From UHGV virus genome UHGV-1374671: DNA of 64,000 bases; one strand, given 5' to 3'. Below, in pieces: positions 3,866 through 30,328 of this stretch. The first letter of the stretch is position 1; each line of letters opens with the position of its first letter. The notes below the pieces were generated by a model. The model saw only the letters and a list, made by a program, of their open reading frames with translations, was not told the DNA's origin and made no database searches. Both the position numbers and the translations under genes were made by a program. The stretch comes from a virus.

Positions 3866-4603
3866 ATGCTGAACTCATTCAACATAGACAGATCCGATTC
3901 CGAGATCAACACCAATTTCCCATTCCAGTGGCAGTGCAGGCTGCAGCTTGGATCCGTACAGCTGCCATCAGGTCTGATACGCTCCATTCGAGTGCATTGC
4001 ACGGAAGGCATACTGCCCCCTGTGAGGCTTCACAAGGTCCAGATCAACGGCGACAACGGAACGGCCGAGTTTCGTGATTCACAGGGCGTATCCGTCTGCT
4101 TCTGGAAATTTTCTTACAAGTCATCCGACACTCGTATCAGTGCGTTTCTGACGAACAGTTACAACGTGATCAGCGGACATATCGTGTGCTCGGAAGAATT
4201 GCCGGCCATGCTGTTCTCGATTGCGGCTGCCAATAATAACGAGGTGACCACAGAGAGCGACGATTTCCTGTTGCTGCCCCAGTGTCACACCTCCAGTTTG
4301 TCCGGGTACTGCAAGGCGTTCAAGATCGGTGATACTGTTTACAACAGCGATCTTACAATCAAGTCAGGTGCTTACACCAGTTCAGAATTCAAGGGCGGCG
4401 TGTACTCCATAAGCCTGCTTGGCAAATACGCAGTAGACACGGATTCCGCCATGAACAGGGACGGTATCATGCAGTTGAGCGTGAACGGTGAGACCTATTA
4501 CGTTGGTGGACGACACCTGCTTATCCGGGCGGGAATGACGTCGAACCTGAGAGTGGTGATGGCGAACTCCGCAATAACGCTGAAGGGGGTGCAGGATGAT
4601 TGA
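3866..4603 (+). CDS. hypothetical protein
   Basis: 245 aa ORF in operon context. Confidence 0.45.
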   Translation: MLNSFNIDRSDSEINTNFPFQWQCRLQLGSVQLPSGLIRSIRVHCTEGILPPVRLHKVQINGDNGTAEFRDSQGVSVCFWKFSYKSSDTRISAFLTNSYNVISGHIVCSEELPAMLFSIAAANNNEVTTESDDFLLLPQCHTSSLSGYCKAFKIGDTVYNSDLTIKSGAYTSSEFKGGVYSISLLGKYAVDTDSAMNRDGIMQLSVNGETYYVGGRHLLIRAGMTSNLRVVMANSAITLKGVQDD

Positions 4604-5330
4604 GGCTGTAAAGGATCTTGCGGTCAGCTACCCGTTTATCCCTGGAAGCACGGTGCCTGAGGCGCTGAAGCACATCAAGGACGCCAGGATCATCTTTGAG
4701 CTGCCGGCAAACACGTATCGACAAGGCGACAGCAATACGATGCAGTTCTACGCCGAGCTGGTCAGCATTGATCCGAGCAAGGCTGTGTTCCATGTTGTGT
4801 GCACACCGTTCTCGGTGGACGAGAACGTGACAGTGCCTGTCAACGTGGGAATCTTCAATGTTCCGATGGGCAACAATTACGTGCTGGTGGACGAGCCTGT
4901 GACTTATACCGGGTCTCACACGCTGCATCCGGATTGCCTGATCTTCTTCCAGAAAGCTCCCAAGCTCAGTGCGGCTGATAGGACCGCTGTACGGTCTGAT
5001 GATTCGTATTCTTCGGAAGTGTACGGTTTTGGGCCAACCATAGCCTTTGCGGACGGGTACAATGTGAACGTGTCCGGCAACGAAAGCACGGTGGTGTTCA
5101 ACGGAGGAGAAGGAAGCGGACTCGGCATCTGGCTGACGTCTCCGTGGGTCGACGTTAAGGACTCCACCTTGAGAGCCGCAGTAGGCCTTCGCACCATAAA
5201 CGGAAAGAACGGCAACGTCCAGATCAACGGAAGCCAGTCAGTCGGCGTCGAGGGTACCGGAGGCATCGAGCTGGTGATTAACCCGCTGCCTTATCCAGAA
5301 GACGATGAGGACGAAGAGGTCACCCCATGA
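4596..5330 (+). CDS. hypothetical protein with acidic C-terminus
   Basis: 244 aa ORF overlapping neighbours by 8 and 4 nt. Confidence 0.45.
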   Translation: MIEAVKDLAVSYPFIPGSTVPEALKHIKDARIIFELPANTYRQGDSNTMQFYAELVSIDPSKAVFHVVCTPFSVDENVTVPVNVGIFNVPMGNNYVLVDEPVTYTGSHTLHPDCLIFFQKAPKLSAADRTAVRSDDSYSSEVYGFGPTIAFADGYNVNVSGNESTVVFNGGEGSGLGIWLTSPWVDVKDSTLRAAVGLRTINGKNGNVQINGSQSVGVEGTGGIELVINPLPYPEDDEDEEVTP

Positions 5331-6487
5331 TCAGGATCAAAGAGAACAGGTGCGGTTACGCCGGATACAAGTGCGTCGGTATTGAAGAGCTGAAAGAACC
5401 GTTCCGGTATAAAAAACTGGTGTGCGACACCGAGATAAACCGTACCGAGTTCCCTGTGCAGGACTGGTCCGAGGATACGCCTGACGAGGCCAAGTATCAT
5501 CTCATAGACAACTACAAGAACATCCCGACCCTGCTGAAGGGTTTCATGATGACCAGCAGCACTCTGATCGATATGGACGTTGCCGTGTCCTACCCTGAGA
5601 AAGAGTGCCGCACCAATGTGAACCCGTTCCTTACCGTTAATGGCGAGGTCGGATTCCTGGACATGTTCAACGAGTACAGCGACCGGGTCAAGGGCCGCAC
5701 CGAGGGCAGCGAATACGTTGATTTGAAGACCAACATGCTGTGCTTCAACACGAATCCAGGAACGGCTGAAACAGAGGGCACTGACGGGGATGAGTTGATG
5801 TTCGAGCCTGGCATCATTGAGCCCATGCTCGACACGGAATTTTCTCCTGTCGGAATTGAACTCAGCACAGGTGTGGACGCCAGTCTGGACGGTATCATGC
5901 TCGCGATTGCCATGCTTACCAAGTGGCGTACTGTCATCGAGGGCAAGATCAACGATATCTACACCCGGCTCGGTCATATCACCGGGATCAGAAACATGCT
6001 CATCTCGATGCAGATGGAAAGTATCTGCGACGACTTCCGGATTGAACTGGTATCAGGAGATCCTATTCAGTGGACCGGATCCAAACGCGAACCTCGGTAC
6101 CGCGTAGGGGATGGTTACGTATATGTGAACGGCAATCCGATATACGTCAGTGGACGGTCAGCAGAGGGAGAGTTCTACATGTACATAAACCTGTACAAGG
6201 AAGGAACCGACCCGGAAGCGACAATCACTGCAGAGATGGAGACCGAGCCGAAAGGAGACTTCTCTCTTGGCATAGGCGGCGTCAAGATGACGTACAAGAC
6301 TCAGCGCGGAGTGCCTACCTATCGTGTATATCAAATTTGGCAGGAAGGCTGCATGTTTGAAATCGACATGGTACGCACCAATGACGAGGGCTTCCTGTTC
6401 CGTACACTATCCGGTGATTCCCCGTACAAGGCATATCCATACGGTACCTGTCCGAAGGAAGGCGATGAAGACAATCCGAGCTCGTAA
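5327..6487 (+). CDS. hypothetical protein
   Basis: 386 aa ORF, ATGA overlap with previous gene. Confidence 0.45.
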   Translation: MIRIKENRCGYAGYKCVGIEELKEPFRYKKLVCDTEINRTEFPVQDWSEDTPDEAKYHLIDNYKNIPTLLKGFMMTSSTLIDMDVAVSYPEKECRTNVNPFLTVNGEVGFLDMFNEYSDRVKGRTEGSEYVDLKTNMLCFNTNPGTAETEGTDGDELMFEPGIIEPMLDTEFSPVGIELSTGVDASLDGIMLAIAMLTKWRTVIEGKINDIYTRLGHITGIRNMLISMQMESICDDFRIELVSGDPIQWTGSKREPRYRVGDGYVYVNGNPIYVSGRSAEGEFYMYINLYKEGTDPEATITAEMETEPKGDFSLGIGGVKMTYKTQRGVPTYRVYQIWQEGCMFEIDMVRTNDEGFLFRTLSGDSPYKAYPYGTCPKEGDEDNPSS

Positions 6488-9095: not shown

Positions 9096-10013
9096 ATGAA
9101 CAACTTGAGTGACAGCTGTTTCGCATACCAGTCCATGCGAAAATATCCGATCCATACCAAAGAGGCCGCGTGTAACTCGTATCAGGAGTTTTCCAAAGAG
9201 GCGAGCTGCTATCCGAAAGCGCTGGCCGACTCCATTAAGAAGCGCTTTCAAAAGGCCGCAGAGTATCACGAGATCGATCTGGAGTCCCTCACCAAGGAGG
9301 CTTCAACCACTCCCAGGGAAACGATCACCTTCAAGGGCGTTGATGGCAACATTACGATGTCCAAAATCGCGTCCGCAAGCGACATTCCGGCTGCAATGGA
9401 GAAAATCCTGGAATACAGAGCGGTAACCAAGCGAGCCAACCTCCAGGAGGCTGCAAAGTACGTTATTTGGGCTGCTGCGAACACTGATTTCGACATGGAC
9501 TCCGATGACATGCGCAAAATTGCCCATATCGCAGGGCTGGGAGTCGGTGACCGGGAGCAGATCCAGGCAGAATTTGAGAAACGGGCCACTTTGAACATTC
9601 TGGATGGCGAATCCAAGGACGCGTTTTGGAAATTTGCTTCCGAATTGAAGGATCTCAGCGACGAGGACTTCTATTCCGAGGGCAATTTGAACAAAATGTG
9701 CTCGATTTTGGAAGAAATCGACACGCTGTACGACAATACGCACAAGTACGGAACCCAGCTCAAGCGGCCTGAGGATATTGTTTTTGCCCAGACCATGGAC
9801 GATCTCATCAAAGAAGCGCATGATCTGCTCCTGATCCCGTCCATCGACGCCACAATCAGCAAAACGGCGCTCCTGGAGCGTGCCGACAAGGCGAATTCCT
9901 TCTTCAAGACCTATCTTGGACAGGAAAAAGAACTCTCCGGAGACGATTTGTTCGGAAAAGTGGCGTCTCTGGATGCTGAAATCGCAGCCGCGCTGCTGGA
10001 AAGGATCGCATGA
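9096..10013 (+). CDS. hypothetical protein
   Basis: 305 aa ORF; divergent from the minus-strand ORFs upstream. Confidence 0.45.
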   Translation: MNNLSDSCFAYQSMRKYPIHTKEAACNSYQEFSKEASCYPKALADSIKKRFQKAAEYHEIDLESLTKEASTTPRETITFKGVDGNITMSKIASASDIPAAMEKILEYRAVTKRANLQEAAKYVIWAAANTDFDMDSDDMRKIAHIAGLGVGDREQIQAEFEKRATLNILDGESKDAFWKFASELKDLSDEDFYSEGNLNKMCSILEEIDTLYDNTHKYGTQLKRPEDIVFAQTMDDLIKEAHDLLLIPSIDATISKTALLERADKANSFFKTYLGQEKELSGDDLFGKVASLDAEIAAALLERIA

Positions 10014-11465: not shown

Positions 11466-12683
11466 TCCTATGCTTCGTAGGATTGAATGTTTAGTGCGTG
11501 AATGCATTGAAATTACAATCGTTCTTTCACACGCAGCGAACGGGATCCCTTCGTTTCCTTCCTCGGTAACGGCACGCCGTTACCGGATACGTCAACGAAA
11601 GGGATCCCTCACGCTGCATTGTTCATTCTCAGACTGCAAGAAATCAGAACAGCCGGTACGTTGGGGCTGTAAATCCAATGAGCAAACTGGAACTTTGCAT
11701 ATGCTTCGTATGCTGATGAACCTGGTAACTGACACCAGTAAGTATCGATGTGACATGGGCTGCGCTCTGAGTCGCGATCTGTTCACCGGGCTTAAAACTC
11801 GCAGCCTGGCGGCTGCGTGTTCACAGCCACGTTCACAAACGCGACTCAGAGCGCTTTTCGCCCTTGTCTTGAATATGTCACCGCCATCAATAGCAGTTTG
11901 CATTTTCTACTCCAGATATAAAATCCTCTATGACCCGGTATGTGGTTCGCATACAAGCCCAGCAGTCAGATTTGCCTGTTGAAATGTGAAACCCTGCGAG
12001 AACCATGAACCTTCCTGGAAGTGGTTTTCCAGGAAGTTCATTTCGTCTCGCTGTCTCGGGTTTCAGATAGAGGTGTGTTTGTTGAATTTCTGTATGATTC
12101 GTACAGGTGATGTAGTGTACGACTGTCCATGTAAACAGCATGGTCGTTACCACTATTACGACTCAACTGGACCTACCGTCTGGCGCCCGCTACCTTAACC
12201 GGAATGCGAGGCGCCTGACGACGGTCCATTGAGTCTACATAGTTATAACAACCGCTTCAGAACAAACACCGTCCTTACTGATTTTGAATTTTGCCGTGCT
12301 TCGCGGCAATGTGTGCGGCACCAAATCCAGTGTCGGAAACAAGGTTCTGCATACAAACCGGCTCCCTCCTGAATTTCTGCCTTAGATGCGGGGATCGCCC
12401 CCGCATCTACAGCCAAAATTCAGCGGGTTCCGGCTTGACTTTGAACCATTAGAAAATCAGTCGATTACTTGAATTCTTTGGTGCTTCGCCAAAGTGCGCG
12501 TATGTCTGGAATACGTGTTTAAACAAGAATGAGCTTGCATCAGTACGACGACCAGTCATGCAGCGCCTTCGTCTTCTTTCAGAAGTACAAAGGACGCATG
12601 CAGACTGGCGTCTCCCTATCCCCAAGCATATTCTTCAGAAGTAATCAAATTACGCGAATTGACTAGGTCAGTGCTTCGCTGAC
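11466..12683 (+). repeat. array of five stem-loops with invariant 7-nt loop TGCTTCG and covarying 5-6 bp stems
   Basis: tccta-TGCTTCG-tagga (~11466-11482); gcata-TGCTTCG-tatgc (~11697-11713); ttgccg-TGCTTCG-cggcaa (~12291-12309); ctttgg-TGCTTCG-ccaaag (~12476-12494); gtcag-TGCTTCG-ctgac (~12667-12683). TTGAAT/TTGACT-like hexamers lie 4-8 nt upstream of three of the five. Confidence 0.7.
12384..12408. other. very stable 11-bp perfect hairpin (TAGATGCGGGG-atcgc-CCCCGCATCTA) without U-tract
   Basis: seen directly in sequence. Confidence 0.6.
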
Positions 12684-16717: not shown

Positions 16718-17120
16718 GCAAATAGAGCGATTTTGAGGCCCACATAGCTGTCACCCCATGTCGTTGCCCGGTTTTGAGACCGATCGCCATCAGAAGGGCC
16801 TCAGAATTGATTTATCTGGTATTCGCACCGGATACCTGACCCGGCTTTCGCACCACCATCAGCTGATCCAGGTCTAAGCGCCGGTGAAAACACCGGATTC
16901 AGACGCCGGAAAACGACCGATTCAGCGCCAGGAGAACCACCGGATTCAGCGACCCTGTTCACGACTGTTAATCCCTGCGCCAGGTTTTCATGCCAGGTTT
17001 ATCGGGATTCAAATAGAGCGATTTTGAGGCCCACATAGATCGACCCCTAGTGAGAGCCCGTTTTCGACCACGTCGTCGATCAGAGACAGTCAGGAATCGA
17101 TTTATCGGGCATTTCCATCA
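16718..17120. repeat. two ~110 bp direct repeat units starting CAAATAGAGCGATTTTGAGGCCCACATAG, plus 3x ~21 bp tandem repeats and 3x GATTTATC(G/T)GG (iteron-like)
   Basis: units at ~16718-16830 and ~17010-17120; AACACCGGATTCAGACGCCGG / AACGACCGATTCAGCGCCAGG / AACCACCGGATTCAGCGACCC at ~16886-16952. Confidence 0.65.
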
Positions 17121-20458: not shown

Positions 20459-21736
20459 ATGAAAATTGTACTGGCCGATACAGTGATCACTGTGTTCGGG
20501 TGGCTCAATGTGATGGATCAGATCGGAAAGTACAAGCTGAAGATCCGCAAGACTCCTCAGGAGATCCGTGAGGAGAAGGAGATCAGACGACAGCGGTACG
20601 GAAGCGACGCCCATAAGGTGAATCCTATGCGGTACGAAGATCGCACCGTGATCGCCAAGAATCCGTCTGATCCTACCATCGCATACTTTCTCCCAGGGCT
20701 GTGGCCACGGGTGAAAGGCTATCTGGATACGCAGAAGATTACATACGAAATCGAGGACAAAAGGGATCCTTCCATCAGGCCTGACCCGGACTATTCAAAA
20801 CTGGCCGGAGCGACATTGAGACCAGGACAGGATACCGCCTTGGCCCTGATTACGTCGTTGGATTGTGGGCTAATAAATACCAGCACGGCATGGGGAAAAA
20901 GCCATCTAATATCTTTTATATGCAAGGTTTATCCCACGCTTAACATTGTCGTCACCACTGGATCCACCACGGTGGTCTCAACTCTGTACGAATATCTGTG
21001 CAAGCAGCTGCCCGGCCAGGTCGGTTACCTGTACGCCAGGGGCAACACCACGCATGGAAAACGGGTGATTGTGACCACGCTGAAGTCGTTGCCGAACATC
21101 TCTCCTGAGCGCGTCCAGTTGCTGTTGTGCGACGAGTGTCATGCCTGCGGAGACAACGAGGCCGGCAGGGCAGTGTCCAAGTTTGTGTTCAGCCGCAGAT
21201 TTGGATTCTCCGCCAGTCCGATCCGCAATGACGGCTCCAGAATCGTTATGGAGTCCATCTTCGGACCTGAGATCATGAAGATGACCTACCAGGAGTCTGT
21301 TGACGTTGGAAACATCGTTCCCATGAAGTACCTGATGCTGCCTTGTCACAAAGGGCCAACCAGCTTGTGCGACAAGCCGGGCATGGACGATGTATTCAAG
21401 AAGCGCTTCGGGTACTGGTGCAACTACAACAGGAACAGGGCTATTGTGGAACTGGTCTACGACATCAAGCAGGTGTATGAGGGCCAGATTTTGATAATGG
21501 TCGGTTCACTGGAACACGCAATTCAGTTGCACATTATGCTGCCCTGGTTCAAGGTCGCTCATTATGGCGCAACTGACTTGGACGAACTCAAGAAAAAGAA
21601 GTTCTCCAAAGACAAATACTCCGACATTGACTTTTCTCAGTACAAGATGAGCCAGAAGCAGCTGGACATTATGCGGGCCGCCTTTGCAAAAGGTACGCTC
21701 AGGTACGTGATCTGCACCAAAGTGTTTAAACAAGGT
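20459..21736 (+). CDS. SF2 DExH-box helicase, exon 1 (interrupted by group I intron)
   Basis: motif I TSTAWGKSH; motif II LLCDECHACG; motif III FSASP; ORF runs into a stop at 21760 before motifs V/VI, which resume in the ORF at 22024. Confidence 0.7.
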
Positions 21737-22023
21737 AAACATCAATGCCTCGCAGCATAGGAATGTGCTGTCGTGAGCCGCTTAATTGCTGGGAACTCCG
21801 ACCGGGTAATGCCGAGGACAATCAGCAGCGAAGTCCTGAAAAGTAGGAAACGTTCAACGACTATCCCTGCGGGGAGTACACGCAAGTGCGTGGAAACAGC
21901 GGCCACCCAGAACGGGTGAAGATATAGTCTGACCTTGCATGGTAACATGCAGCTGGATTAACAATCCGGGCTGAGCGTAACGAACTCAGTTGAACACAAA
22001 AGGTTGATTTTAAAGCACTTACG
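21737..22023 (+). ncRNA. group I self-splicing intron (ORF-less, ~290 nt) in helicase gene
   Basis: P/Q/R/S-like elements: TAATTGCTGGGAACTCC, AATCAGCAGCG, GTTCAACGACTATCC, GAAGATATAGTCTGACC; exon 1 ends on T (ggt); G immediately precedes exon 2. Confidence 0.7.
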
Positions 22024-22284
22024 GTGTTGTTCCGTGGAGACGGCGACGTGTCTGGTGTGGAATGTATCCAGATCCCTGGCCGAGTTGCCCGTCTGTCGGA
22101 AGGCAAGGACTGCGGTTACCTGATCGACGTCAATGACACGTTCAGCACTTGGTCCAGAGAGCGGTCACAGGCCAGAGAGAAGCAATATCAGGAGCAGAAA
22201 TGGACGAAGATAACAAGGGAGGATCTGCTGGATGATCTCCGTAGACTCACTGAAGGCAACCCTGACAGGGCTTCTGGGGAGTAG
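22024..22284 (+). CDS. SF2 helicase, exon 2 (motif VI QIPGRVAR)
   Basis: ECIQIPGRVARL matches helicase motif VI Q-x-x-G-R-x-x-R; exact 3' splice site among 22024/22027/22030 unresolved. Confidence 0.65.
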   Translation: MLFRGDGDVSGVECIQIPGRVARLSEGKDCGYLIDVNDTFSTWSRERSQAREKQYQEQKWTKITREDLLDDLRRLTEGNPDRASGE

Positions 22285-25895: not shown

Positions 25896-26921
25896 ATGCA
25901 AGACTTAGGCGTCGTCGACGTCAGCATGCGGCACTTTGTCGGGCCGGTTCACATCCGGGTATGGGAGCCCGGAGATCCGTTCCCGACACTGGGGCCTTCC
26001 GTTGGCGTTGACACAGAAACCGAGCTGATCACGGACACGGTGAAGGACCCGCCGGTAGTTGTTACCGGCGTGTTCGACCCTGCGAACTCGAATTGCTGGA
26101 TCGTTTACTGGCAGCATACCGCAGCGTTCATGCGGGAGCTGAACAAGCGCGACATCCAGCAGAGGTACTTCAACGTCGGGTTCGACGAACAGGTGCTCGA
26201 CAACGAGGACGAGGAGAAGAGCCTTCTGACGGCTGTCGACGCAAGGCGGGTGCGTGATATGCAGATCCGCATTCACCTGCACGAGATCGCCACGCTGGGT
26301 TGGATCCGAGGCAATCTGTACAACCTGGCGGACTGTGCTCTGCACTTCCTGAATGTGACGCTGGACAAGGGTGATCCGGACGACTACGAGAACTCTGCAC
26401 GAATGACGTTTCGGCGGCATAATAAAGATGGGAGCGTTTATCGCATAACGGATGAACAGGCCAAATACCTGTGTTATGACTGCGCTTCCACCTGGGGTCT
26501 CGGAGAATCGGTACCGGAACAGCCAACCGAGGTGGAACATACCAAGGGCATGATCGTCCTGGCACACATCAGCACCAACGGCATTCAGGTCGACCCTGTA
26601 GTGTTCGACGCCATGGAGGAGAAGCTGTTCAAAGCCAGGGACGAGGCCAGGCTTCGTCTGCTGGCGTTTGGATTCCCAGATCCGTACAAGGACGTCAAGA
26701 AGGAGGCCGCAGCCGAGCGTCAGCTTTTCTACTCGGAATACAAAAAGCTGTGTGAATCGGCAGGACTGGAGTGCCATCTCGGCATGGAGGAACAGACACT
26801 CGATGACGAAGACGAAACCGTCATTCAGGTTCCTAAAATACCAAAGAAGGACTCTCTCAGGCTGATGGTCTGCTACCTGTATCGATGCTTCACGTTCGTA
26901 CACAATACCAAGAACGCGGCG
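25896..26921 (+). CDS. polA: family A DNA polymerase, exon 1 (3'-5' exonuclease domain)
   Basis: Exo I VGVDTETE; Exo II/III-like YLCYDCAS; frame hits a stop at 26924 immediately before an intron core. Confidence 0.7.
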
Positions 26922-28478
26922 TAGGTACCTTTGCGGCGTGAGCCGCATCGAAGAAGAAAGTGAATTGCTGGAAGCCTAAACCGGGAGTGTAGCCCGGCAT
27001 GGTAATCAGCAGCCAATCAACCGGATCGCTAAACTGGATTCAACCATCCAGCATGCACCGGGGAAAAGGTTCAACGATCATCGGGGTGTCCACCTGATAA
27101 GCGGCCCCGTTAGCGTGCAAGCGTGCGCGAAGTGCTCCGTGACGGGAAACCGTCACGATGATATGATCTGTGCTACCCGAAAGGGATAGGAAGCCCCAGC
27201 CTGATCAGCTGGATAAGCCGGGTGAGCGTAGCGAACTCACTTGAACAAGAACCATGAGGTCTTATGAATCGACGTAAATTCTCACATTTACGCTTGATAT
27301 TGTTGACGTACATGCTATATTAGAACCAGGTACTATAATACACGGAAGTTTTGAAGTGATAAGCAGAGCTCATACAATCAAGCTGAAACCCAATAAAGCA
27401 CAGGCGATCATGCTGGCCAAGACGGCCGGTACTGCCAGGTATGCCTACAACTGGGGATTGGCCAAGTGGAATGAGCTGTACGAAGCCGGTGAGAAGTGCA
27501 GTGCTTACAGCCTGATGAAACTTTGGCAAGAAGGCAGACCTGACTGGGCATTGGAAGTGGGCGCTGCGTGTTTGCAGCGCCCGTTCATGCACCTGGAAGG
27601 CGCCTTCAAAGCGTTCTTCAGAGGACAGCGTAAGCACCCAACCTTTCACAAGAAGGGTTTGCGGGACGGGTTCTACGTCCCGAATACTCATTTCAAACTC
27701 CGTGGTAACAAGGTTCAGCTACCCAAGTGCGGACTTGTCAGAATGACCGAGCGTATTCGTTACGCGGATGTGAAGGTTGTTTCTTCGGCAGTCAAGCACC
27801 AGGCAGACGGCTGGTATGTCGTAATCCAGGTCGAGCTTGAAGAGGAACACAGAACCGAATCCGACTCTTTTGTCGGAGTCGATGTCGGATGTACCCAGCT
27901 CGCAACAGCGAGCGACGGTACGACCTGCTGCTCACCGGCCAAGCTCAAAGACCTGGAACGTCAGCTGAAACGTAGACAGCGCTTGCTGGCACGCAAAGCC
28001 AAGGGCTCCAACAATCGAGCGAAAGCGAGATTGAAGGTAGCCCGTACCTGGCAACGAATCAACAATATCAAACAAGACACAGCTCACAAGTTCACTGCAC
28101 TCATTGCCAAGAACCACGGCACTGTTTGCATTGAAAAGCTGGATGTGAAGAGTATGCAATCAGGAGACAACGCCCTCGTAAGAAAGGGCGTGCATAACTC
28201 CTGCATGTCGGAAATCCTGAGACAACTCAAGTACAAGTGTAACAACTTTATTGAAGTTGACAAGTATTTCCCGTCCAGTAAGACTTGTTCGAACTGTGGG
28301 CACATAAACGCTGAACTGACCCTTGGGGATCGCACGTATAATTGTCCGGGCTGCGGACTGAAAATCGACAGGGATCTGAACGCAGCGTTGAACCTCCGTA
28401 AGGAGGGTCTGAGGATTTACACGGTGGGTCACACCGGCAGTGCCTGTGGAGTTGCCCGGTAACGGGCGGCGCTGAAGC
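26922..28478 (+). mobile_element. IStron-like element: group I intron ribozyme core fused to an IS605-family (TnpB-only) module, inserted in the DNA polymerase gene
   Basis: ribozyme core ~26950-27290 shares P/Q/R/S elements with the helicase intron (GAATTGCTGGAAGCC, AATCAGCAGCC, GTTCAACGATCATC, GATATGATCTG); IS left-end-like hairpin CGTAAAT-tctcac-ATTTACG (~27268-27289); tnpB 27356-28462; right-end hairpin GCCCG-gtaa-CGGGC spanning the tnpB stop; the polymerase frame reopens right after a TGA at 28473-28475. Confidence 0.7.
27356..28462 (+). CDS. tnpB: TnpB (IS605 OrfB-family RuvC-like RNA-guided nuclease)
   Basis: 368 aa; RuvC-I GVDVG; CSNCG...CPGCG zinc finger; RuvC-III DRDLNAALNL. Confidence 0.85.
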   Translation: MISRAHTIKLKPNKAQAIMLAKTAGTARYAYNWGLAKWNELYEAGEKCSAYSLMKLWQEGRPDWALEVGAACLQRPFMHLEGAFKAFFRGQRKHPTFHKKGLRDGFYVPNTHFKLRGNKVQLPKCGLVRMTERIRYADVKVVSSAVKHQADGWYVVIQVELEEEHRTESDSFVGVDVGCTQLATASDGTTCCSPAKLKDLERQLKRRQRLLARKAKGSNNRAKARLKVARTWQRINNIKQDTAHKFTALIAKNHGTVCIEKLDVKSMQSGDNALVRKGVHNSCMSEILRQLKYKCNNFIEVDKYFPSSKTCSNCGHINAELTLGDRTYNCPGCGLKIDRDLNAALNLRKEGLRIYTVGHTGSACGVAR

Positions 28479-29453
28479 AGGAAGATTCATAAGAATCGTG
28501 AACAGAACCACTCGGACGAGCCTGACGAGCTCCAGCTGTGTGCCGAGAACGTCAAAATCGTGTGCGAAATGGAGAAACCGTCACTGCGGAAAGACGCCAG
28601 GAACATGTACTCGAAGCTCCTGGAGGACTACGAGATCATGGCGTTCGACCAGGCCACCAAGGGAATCGTCATGCCGTCGTTTGTGGCGCATCTGATGGAG
28701 CACTACAACAAGCAGCGTGATTCCGGAGAGGTCGCAGCAAAGGGCTACGACTTCGGAGCCGCAGTCAAGTACGCCAGCGAGTACATCGACGATCATCCTG
28801 AATGGCTGTCGAAATCCGAGCAGATAGGTCCCAGCAAATTCTTCCAGAATCATGTGAAGGGCATCATGGAGGCCAATCCGAAGCTGGAGCTGGAGACCAC
28901 TCCCAAGAGTGGGGCAGTCAAGCTGACACTCAAGGACAAGTGGCGGTTGGAGGACAACGGCATCAAGGACAAGTTCTTGGATGCTTACATTGACTTCAAT
29001 CATTGCCAGAAATATTTAAGTACCTATATGAACCGTTTGTTCATCAAAGGGGATAATCGGATACATGCCAGGTTCACAAATATTTTGCGGACCGGACGTA
29101 CCAGCTGCACCGGACCTAACTTGCAGAATTATCCCAGCAGGGACAAGGTGTTTCCGTTGAAGAACATCTTCTGTCCTTACGATGGCATGCTGTTGTGTGC
29201 TACCGACTTCTCGTTTATTGAGTTGTGTGGCTTTGCCCAGTCCTGTTACAGCAGGTTTGGGTTCAGCGTTATGCGCGACGTCATCAACGCAGGTCTGGAT
29301 CCGCACCGCTGGTTCGCAGCGGTGATGGACAAGCTGATCAAGCCGGACCTGACGCACAAGGACGACCCGAAATGGGTCGCGGAACTGAAAGGATTTTTGA
29401 AAGCAAATGTAGACGATTCAAGACGACAAAAGGCCAAAATGGCCAATTTCGGT
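28479..29453 (+). CDS. polA: family A DNA polymerase, exon 2 (fingers/palm, motifs A and start of B)
   Basis: RTGRTSCTGPNLQNYP and DFSFIELC (motif A); RRQKAKMANFG (motif B start); frame then breaks after NFG. Confidence 0.7.
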
Positions 29454-29680
29454 CGACCATCAAGGCCGAATTAAAACTGCGGAATTAAGCGGGGAACTCT
29501 CATTGAGACGATCCGAACCGAAGCCTGGAAGGGATTCCAGTCAGGGACAGAGCATACCGGCAGGGGAAGAACTCCCATCAGCCGACACGAGGCCGCAGCA
29601 ACTGGAGAAACAACTCTGGTTGAAAAGATATGCCGAGCTGTGTGGCGACATACAGAAGTGCTGGATAAAAAGCCGGCACG
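29454..29680 (+). ncRNA. putative small group I-like intron (~227 nt) splitting polA motif B
   Basis: exon ends TTCGGT; GCCGAA 12 nt downstream can form a 6-bp P1 with a G-U pair at the splice site; GAATTAAGCGGGGAACTCT resembles the P element of the other introns; AAAGATATGCC is S-like; a G at 29680 precedes an in-frame continuation ITKLFPGALGV...EEAEF. Confidence 0.5.
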
Positions 29681-30328
29681 ATAACAAAACTGTTTCCAGG
29701 AGCACTGGGTGTCAAGACTTTCTACAGGAACTGCAGGGAGTCCGGCGTACACCTGACCATGGAAGAAGCTGAATTCATGCGGGATGCGTGGATCAGCACT
29801 TTCAAGGAAATGAAGTTCCACATGAAGCCAGAGAAGTTGCGTAACTCGACAGGGTTCGGCAACCAGTTCGGCTTCAGGGACGACGAAGAAGAGTACATCG
29901 ACCCGTCCGAGCAGGACAGGCAGTTGTACAGGGCAAAATTAATTAATGGAATGGTTAGAAACAGGTGCAGTTTCAATGCGGCCTGTAATATGCAATTCCA
30001 AGGGCTCGTGGCATTTGGCGCGAAGCTGGCAGGCTGGAATCTAGTAACTCACGGATACGAACATAGAGTAGTCAATTTCGTACACGACGAATTTCTGTAC
30101 TGCCTGTATCCGGAGGAGCTCAAGGTCCACATCCCTGTCATTGAGCGCCTGATGATCGACGGGATGAGAGTTGCCATCCCGGATGTTAAAGTAGGAGTGG
30201 AATCCAGCGTCATGCGTCATTGGGACAAGAAGGCGACGGAATTCCACGACGTGAAGTGGGACGAGCAGGGAAGACCGCTCATTGAAGAGCCGCTGTTCGT
30301 CCAGAGTGTTCTCAAAATGGCCCAGTAG
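29681..30328 (+). CDS. polA: family A DNA polymerase, exon 3 (motif C, C-terminus)
   Basis: ESGVHLTMEEAEFMRDAW (post-motif-B helix); NAACNMQFQG; NFVHDEFLY (motif C HDE). Confidence 0.7.
   Translation: MTKLFPGALGVKTFYRNCRESGVHLTMEEAEFMRDAWISTFKEMKFHMKPEKLRNSTGFGNQFGFRDDEEEYIDPSEQDRQLYRAKLINGMVRNRCSFNAACNMQFQGLVAFGAKLAGWNLVTHGYEHRVVNFVHDEFLYCLYPEELKVHIPVIERLMIDGMRVAIPDVKVGVESSVMRHWDKKATEFHDVKWDEQGRPLIEEPLFVQSVLKMAQ

Follow-up and report, generated by a model that had tools for sequence, protein, structure and literature searches.

A group I intron without an endonuclease gene interrupts motif V of an SF2 helicase gene in an uncultured phage lineage

Results

The stretch of viral DNA analysed here (virus genome UHGV-1374671; 64,000 nt, hereafter called the window) carries an SF2 helicase gene whose sequence is distributed over two open reading frames on the plus strand. 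The first of these (20459-21760, +) encodes 433 amino acids, and its frame is lost 24 bases past the sequence ..TKVFKQG, where reading through into the intervening DNA leads to a stop codon at 21758-21760. Translation places motifs I, II and III in this ORF and the QIPGRVAR sequence of motif VI in the frame of the ORF starting at 22024, just as a preliminary description of this DNA had claimed. Joining 20459-21736 to 22003-22284 yields a helicase of 519 amino acids in which, on translation, all SF2 motifs are found (TAWGKS, motif I; DECH, motif II; SASP, motif III; TKVFKQGVDF, motif V; QIPGRVAR, motif VI) and for which the Pfam domains Helicase_C and ResIII both score above their cut-offs. Exon 1 (20459-21736, +; 426 codons) carries motifs I to III and the first half of motif V (..CTKVFKQG), and aligns with residues 1-426 of uninterrupted homologues. 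Exon 2 (22003-22284, +; 93 codons plus stop) carries motif VI and the remainder of motif V (VDF..). The insertion had been proposed to lie between motifs V and VI; it is instead located inside motif V (T-x5-G|VD, here ..TKVFKQG|VDF..), between the G and V codons.

About 120 relatives of the 519-aa helicase were found in a large protein collection, many of them full length and uninterrupted. The closest homologue is 96% identical and likewise 519 aa long. Across the junction it reads VFKQGVDFKALTVLFRGDGDV, which is identical to the spliced product and includes the same junction peptide, VFKQGVDFKAL. Ten uninterrupted homologues could be aligned across the junction without gaps, showing the sequence ..VFKQG|VDFKALTVLFRGDGDV.. 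at this position. In a tblastn search of cultured phages with the helicase, no homologue above about 27% identity was obtained, and the phage harboring the intron is therefore assigned to an uncultured lineage, the contigs of which reach 120-195 kb.

The gene for the closest homologue is located on a 123-kb Logan assembly representing a sister phage (contig L001), which shows 90-95% DNA identity to the window and 90.6% across the helicase gene. DNA comparison showed that this contig lacks exactly positions 21737-22002 (266 nt, +): collinearity stops at 21736 and restarts at 22003. The predicted ligated exon junction is AAACAAGGU|GUUGAUUUU and the corresponding intron-less site of the sister phage is GTGTTTAAACAAGGT|GTTGATTTTAAAG. 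The last base of the 5' exon is T21736, and the last intron base is G22002, the final base missing from the sister contig. Because the sister sequence resumes at 22003 and homologues read through the junction, 22003-22023 (VDFKALT) belongs to the exon, and GTG22024 encodes an internal valine. The intron start at 21737 given in the preliminary description was exact, while its end at 22023 (ca. 290 nt) was wrong by 21 nt. The splice-site features it had pointed out were confirmed, namely a T at the end of the 5' exon, a U·G pair and a G as the last base, but this last base is G22002 and not G22023. An intron or spacer extending to 22023, with a downstream gene beginning at GTG22024, was suggested by G22023 preceding the mechanically listed ORF start. 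We give this reading next to no chance, as it is refuted by the collinearity restarting at 22003 and by the conservation of VDFKALT in all full-length homologues. The P10 pairing with 22003-22008 described below also speaks against it.

The insertion was identified as a group I intron using Rfam. When the 64 kb were searched on both strands, a match to RF00028 at 21727-21952 (+) was the sole one above a family threshold (88.1 bits, gathering score 50, E 4e-21), covering model positions 1-253, i.e. the full model. A covariance-model search with a group I model had been suggested as a check, and its outcome agrees with the preliminary description, as does the presence of P, Q, R and S elements between the two ORFs (AAUUGCUGGGAA, AAUCAGCAGC, GUUCAACGACUA and AAGAUAUAGUC, respectively). 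At its 3' end, the intron carries a conserved tail, UUGAACACAAAAG (21991-22002, +), which ends in G22002.

An internal guide sequence, AUCAAUGCCU (21741-21750, +), forms P1 by pairing with the last exon 1 bases plus the first base of the intron, and P10 with exon 2. P1 consists of 5 bp (A21733-U21750, G21734-C21749, G21735-C21748, U21736·G21747 and A21737-U21746) with the U·G pair at the splice site, whereas P10 consists of six contiguous bp between 21741-21746 (AUCAAU) and GUUGAU of exon 2 (22003-22008) and lies directly next to P1 in the guide. Exon and guide change together between phages, reading AGGU/GCCU in the window, GGGU/GCCC in others and ACAGGGU/GCCCUGU in one further intron from the same site (L013). 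A P2 hairpin (21753-21770, +; CAGCAUA / UGUGCUG with a GGAA loop) is seen in the minimum-free-energy fold. The catalytic core was delineated by Rfam alignment and fold and spans 21777-21929 (+). It comprises P3 (21777-81/21899-903), P4 (21787-92/21822-27), P5 (21797-99/21816-18), P5a (21803-05/21812-14), P6 (21828-30/21851-53), the 5-bp hairpin P6a (21834-38/21844-48), P7 (GACUA/UAGUC, 21859-63/21925-29), which forms a pseudoknot with P3, P7.1 (21864-67/21872-75) and P7.2 (21879-83/21888-92), both of which co-vary, and P8 (21904-08/21914-18). It is followed by three peripheral 3' hairpins recognized in the fold (21936-21990, +), P9 (21936-41/21946-51), P9.1 (21953-59/21963-69) and P9.2 (21970-75/21985-90). 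The minimum-free-energy fold of this single sequence gives P1, P2, P3, P4, P5/5a, P6/6a, P7.1, P7.2, P8, P9, P9.1 and P9.2, and the fold z-score of the intron is -3.3 compared with shuffles. In the Michel-Westhof classification, an architecture with P7.1 and P7.2 is that of subgroup IA, as in phage IA2 introns. With both helices located between P7 and P3' and with P2 present, we assign the helicase intron to subgroup IA (IA2-like), based on architecture and similarity to the td intron rather than on a subgroup-specific model.

Covariation was analyzed in a set of seven introns, consisting of the window intron, five introns from the same helicase site and the polA intron of the sister phage. 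For alignments A3 and A4, the input was edited manually: the P6 inserts and the P8 insert of one intron (L011) were taken out or trimmed. In the MAFFT alignment, the 5' half was placed wrongly (P1 and P2, and P3-P5 of L013); P1 and P2 were excluded from the covariation counts, and P1 and P10 were scripted separately. RNAalifold yielded 54 pairs for the seven introns, 27 of them with compensatory changes. When P3 was included as a pseudoknot, the share of paired cells was 93.7%, and two-sided changes were found in 31 of the 54 pairs. None of 500 shuffles matched the 93.7% or the 31 pairs, and sliding the partners by 1-3 columns left 33-42% paired and 7-11 such pairs. Two-sided changes were distributed over P3 (4 of 5 pairs), P4 (3/7), P7.2 (4/5) and P8 (5/5), and compensatory changes were also present in P5, P7.1, P9 (4/7), P9.1 (2/6) and P9.2 (5/6), while P7 is invariant among the helicase-site introns. 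The P1-P9 fold on which the preliminary description had staked its reading was thus recovered and is supported by covariation. RNAalifold additionally paired GUUCA at 21852-21856 (P6'/J6-7) with UGAAC at 21992-21996 (within UUGAACA of the 3' tail). The two blocks are almost invariant and so show no covariation either way; their pairing may represent an alternative conformation or may be fortuitous.

We found introns at the same site in other phages. Eleven protein clusters of the helicase stop at residue 426, and in all seven contigs fetched from these clusters (L002 and L008-L013) the helicase is broken at the identical codon boundary (..F[KR]QG|V[DN]..). Five of the introns are complete, with sizes of 434 nt (L002), 1108 nt (L008), 1105 nt (L010), 1200 nt (L011) and 1090 nt (L013), and two (L009 and L012) are cut by contig ends. 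Core blocks, P9-P9.2 hairpins and a 3' tail of the form ..GAACAnnnnG|G, with the exon following the last G, are common to the same-site introns, bar single substitutions. A covariance model built from six helicase-site introns, the window copy among them (model R1), matches both ribozyme halves in every interrupted locus. Its score of 133.9 bits on the window intron is not independent, as this copy is one of the six training sequences. Five uninterrupted IMG/VR loci from a scan with the helicase alignment served as negative controls and gave no match with R1. Homologues split at the same boundary in the absence of a ribozyme, which the preliminary description had named as a finding that would speak against an intron, were not encountered: all seven interrupted contigs carry the ribozyme.

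The closest relatives of the helicase intron are same-site introns of other phages, with 78-80% core identity. Overall, identity to the window copy amounts to 61-80% for ribozyme cores, compared with a DNA identity of 55-61% for the exons. The intron is absent from most homologues. It is missing in aligned homologues that are 96%, 79% and roughly 60% identical, and present in one that is 59% identical (L002). This patchy distribution, taken together with the identities of cores and exons, fits repeated gain and loss.

The additional length of the long same-site introns is due to sequence in the P6 loop that codes for a protein of ca. 290 aa. Three complete introns carry HNH-type ORFs of about 280-320 aa (L008 4418-5293, L010 4438-5316 and L011 4306-5268), as do the two cut copies. 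Searches against PHROGs matched the intron ORFs to HNH endonuclease and endonuclease VII families (E 1e-14 to 5e-17), while Pfam gave no match for them at E<0.1. The encoded proteins have several conserved zinc-finger-like cysteine pairs and the motif NG[VI]DRxD..GY..N.V.CC..CN..K, and may represent an undescribed HNH homing endonuclease subfamily. The 3' end of the HNH ORF (ERSTTI..) overlaps P6', P7 and P7.1. The ORF of the L013 intron carries stop codons, and this copy looks like an intermediate in ORF loss.

The window intron contains only one mechanically called ORF of 48 aa and no intron-encoded endonuclease. No free-standing gene homologous to the relatives' HNH enzyme was detected by tblastn anywhere in the 64 kb. 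With the HNH ORF as query, the window gave a single match, 23 aa long and located within the intron (21845-21913), which we read as conserved ribozyme nucleotides since it corresponds to the ORF 3' end that overlaps the core. As relatives at the same site carry an HNH ORF in P6, the window copy is best read as a derivative of an HNH homing intron circulating in this clade that would have lost its endonuclease, with P6a left behind as a 5-bp hairpin; loss, rather than original absence, is deduced only from the comparison with these relatives. Such a copy may now persist passively, or may move only with an endonuclease supplied by a co-infecting relative. The site is polymorphic, being empty in the 96%-identical sister and occupied in seven sequenced loci. 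Comparing the window with the sister contig in 60-nt bins, we counted 1-4 differences near the junction and 5-13 in most of exon 1, and no stretch of raised divergence indicating a co-conversion tract was seen in the flanking exons. With no divergence peak beside the site, there is no direct trace of homing, and a gain in the window and a precise loss in the sister phage look alike.

The lost endonuclease ORF would also be expected of a decayed intron that no longer splices and leaves a truncated 433-aa helicase, with or without a C-terminal fragment translated from GTG22024. The P1 of merely 4-5 bp is short and counts against an active intron, and public gene callers also give truncated proteins at this site. 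However, no core helix is damaged, and at the R and S blocks the sequence agrees with the Rfam consensus. P1 and P10 can be formed with the exons of this phage itself, to which the guide sequence is complementary, and both exons are in frame, with 96% protein identity to the intron-less sister. Further, no Shine-Dalgarno-like sequence is visible before GTG22024, and motif V would be halved while motif VI would be stranded on a fragment of ca. 86 aa. Taken together, we consider a decayed intron very unlikely and favor an intron that splices.

Two further insertions are located in the polA gene of the window. The first (26883-28505, +; 1623 nt) is absent from the sister phage, follows T26882 and ends in G28505. 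Removing it joins the frame as ..VCYLY|NHS.., the same as in the sister. Its ribozyme, at about 26883-27250, scores 26.3 bits with Rfam and 37.5 bits with R1 (E 4e-8), and is followed by a TnpB gene (27356-28462; Pfam OrfB_IS605, Cas12f1-like TNB and HTH_OrfB) and a short 3' tail ending in ..GAACAG; no TnpA was found in this insertion. The layout, ribozyme then TnpB, is that of an IStron. P7 of this ribozyme (GAUCA/UGAUC) is two compensatory changes away from GACUA/UAGUC. Reverse-complement sequences lie near the ends of the TnpB part, TCTTATGAA near 27262 and TTCATAAGA near 28486. The second insertion (29454-29692, +; 239 nt) lies inside motif B (..KMANFG|FPGALG..) and is likewise absent from the sister phage. 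It follows a T, ends in G, has a fold z-score of -3.5 and can form a P1 of 6 bp (UUCGGU/GCCGAA) with a U·G pair; a P7 pairing (GCAUA/UAUGC) was read by eye only. An Rfam search with this insertion alone produced no group I match up to an E of 10, while R1 scored it at 16.7 bits (E about 0.01), the only other match in 85 kb. It is probably a divergent group I intron, and all three window insertions are thus probably group I introns. The sister phage carries a group I intron of its own at 16763-17042 (Rfam 94.8 bits), in a polA site where the window has no insertion (corresponding to 29117|29118). Window and sister phage thereby show four intron presence/absence differences in two replication genes, with all three window insertions missing from the sister.

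According to the preliminary description, the helicase intron core is highly similar to the ribozyme of the polA IStron, and one intron family has spread to at least three sites in replication genes. The count of three holds, as each insertion follows a T, ends in G and is absent from the sister phage. The similarity does exist in the form of the 37.5-bit R1 match but was overstated, given that the same model scores the intron of a phiKZ-like phage at 96 bits and the polA intron of the sister phage at 72 bits. Recent copying of one intron family within this genome, into the helicase gene and twice into polA, would agree with the shared absence from the sister, the common T and G boundaries with formable P1 helices, and R1 matching both polA insertions and nothing else in the window. 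It would also agree with a 47-nt stretch (P9.1-P9.2 and tail) in which the helicase intron is 83% identical to polA insertion 1 and which includes a compensatory change in P9.2. This stretch is, however, the only extended similarity that BLAST finds between the two, there being none beyond universal core blocks. The window polA insertions score far below the phiKZ-like and sister introns with R1 (37.5 and 16.7 bits versus 96 and 72 bits), and the helicase intron is nearest to the same-site introns of other phages. Since the three window introns are not mutual nearest relatives, recent within-genome spread is not supported, and we regard it as improbable. Instead, judging from sequence comparison, the three introns seem to have been acquired independently, out of a common pool of phage IA2-type introns. 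Global pairwise identities of 64-75% among four introns were dropped as uninformative due to lenient gap penalties, and local BLAST and covariance-model scores were used in their place.

The helicase family is interrupted at several further positions, with insertion sites for an intein in motif I and for group I introns in motif II, at residues 349|350 and in motif V. At least 13 helicase protein clusters (P0019, P0027, P0038 and others; L016 3441-4358) contain an insert of ca. 315-340 aa between residues 147 and 148 (GK|S, motif I), and most of these inserts have Pfam intein/Hint or homing-endonuclease domains (PF05203, PF05204). A group I intron of about 239 nt without an ORF interrupts motif II (DEC|H) in L016 (4602-4840; R1 59.6 bits). 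In L015, an intron of 1144 nt is located at residues 349|350 (4545-5688, ..LIMVG|SLEH..; R1 106 bits). The latter carries an ORF that shares 46% identity with the HNH ORF found in the motif V introns, indicating that the same pairing of intron and endonuclease occurs at different sites of one gene. In protein cluster P0109 (428 aa, from a 1583-nt contig), GIY-YIG and NUMOD3 domains come first and are followed by helicase residues 228-426. This suggests a GIY-YIG ORF at the motif II site that is read in frame into the next exon, with the motif V site occupied as well.

Two observations concern other loci. In IMG/VR, the P9/P9.1 signature of the intron family was found only once, on a 95-kb contig (L017, about 9100-9450, -), in a host gene unrelated to the helicase, polA or the HNH ORF. 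Within the window, a long near-perfect hairpin at 11764-11852, also present in the sister phage (L001 1268-1354), gave sub-threshold Rfam matches to a microRNA family on both strands. Rather than a microRNA, it most likely represents an inverted repeat or a structure resembling a terminator.

Discussion

That an SF2 helicase gene is split by a group I intron, the central claim of the preliminary description, was borne out by the RF00028 match of 88.1 bits, the absence of the insertion from the sister phage, the uninterrupted homologues and the covariation. We are highly confident in the combined explanation that the insertion in motif V is a phage IA-type (IA2-like) group I intron that self-splices to give a 519-aa helicase, and that it is a derivative having lost its endonuclease. 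Both splicing and the mode of mobility are deduced here, for an intron whose identity, boundaries, covarying fold, frame restoration, presence/absence polymorphism and shared site in relatives were established above. According to this model, the helicase gene and the intron would be transcribed as one pre-mRNA, in which the intron RNA would adopt the P1-P10 fold and splice by the two guanosine-initiated transesterifications usual for group I introns. In the first, an external guanosine bound by P7 would attack after U21736, which the guide sequence would hold in the U·G pair. The freed exon 1 would in turn attack after G22002, aligned by P10, and the product would be an mRNA for a single 519-aa SF2 helicase. 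The right annotation for this locus is one helicase of 519 aa in place of the 433-aa and 86-aa ORFs obtained from gene callers. At least 11 public protein clusters are cut off at the same residue for the same cause.

The helicase intron is an ordinary example of a well-known mobile element and leaves the knowledge of group I introns unchanged. It does represent a further clear case of mobile elements aiming at those catalytic motifs of phage replication genes that are the most highly conserved, in a helicase family that is a hot spot for such elements and with an IStron-like intron in the same replication module. Further, it provides a compact ORF-less ribozyme of 266 nt that can be compared with a natural intron-less allele and with endonuclease-bearing relatives. 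A more far-reaching idea, which we put forward tentatively and consider rather doubtful, is that a single ribozyme pool gave rise to the endonuclease-less helicase intron, its HNH relatives and the TnpB-carrying polA intron. If true, the same kind of intron would be riding on two homing engines in a single genome, a protein-guided HNH enzyme and an RNA-guided TnpB, one of which would mobilize the bare copy in trans, and the clade would be a natural system for how IStrons arise from ordinary homing introns.

In a collection of cultured phages, only the intron finds matches, with 487 records obtained when using the intron alone as query. The best cultured DNA match is an intron of a phiKZ-like Pseudomonas phage located by PHIKZ072/073, which is 71-72% identical over intron positions 81-263. 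In case of this intron, an ORF precedes the 3' half of the ribozyme, whereas the window copy has none, and both the host gene and the phage lineage are different. The 3' half of the T4 td intron is about 72% identical over window intron positions 120-263 and was matched in many T4-like phages, in records annotated td / I-TevI. The td intron is the archetypal self-splicing phage IA2 intron. It shares the IA-type core with P7.1 and P7.2 between P7 and P3', and both introns are located in a conserved part of a DNA-metabolism gene, which is a thymidylate synthase gene for td and an SF2 helicase gene in the window. The td endonuclease ORF is found in the P6 loop, as is the case in the relatives of the window intron. 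The enzymes themselves differ, being the GIY-YIG endonuclease I-TevI in td and an HNH protein in the relatives, while the window copy encodes none. Introns from Staphylococcus, Bacillus, Campylobacter and other phages likewise match the helicase intron.

It is textbook knowledge that group I introns occur in phage DNA-metabolism genes (PMC3984707). In Twort-like Staphylococcus phages (Romulus, Remus, K and G1), such introns have been reported in helicase genes (PMC5526547), and ribonucleotide reductase, polymerase and lysin genes of these phages are interrupted as well. They provide a precedent for the interruption of a helicase gene. The helicase of Twort is also reported to contain an intein, which has its counterpart in the inteins found here in homologues. 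IStrons are known from CdISt1 of C. difficile and from CbISt3/4, including examples in C. botulinum phages (PMC4227781), and their ribozymes have been classed as IA2 (PMC4227781, PMC13565253). In contrast to these elements, the helicase intron carries no insertion sequence, TnpA, TnpB or guide-RNA scaffold and is a plain ribozyme of 266 nt. The feature characteristic of IStrons, a TnpA and/or TnpB element of the IS200/IS605 or IS607 type embedded towards the intron's 3' end, is represented in the window only by the polA insertion at 26883-28505.
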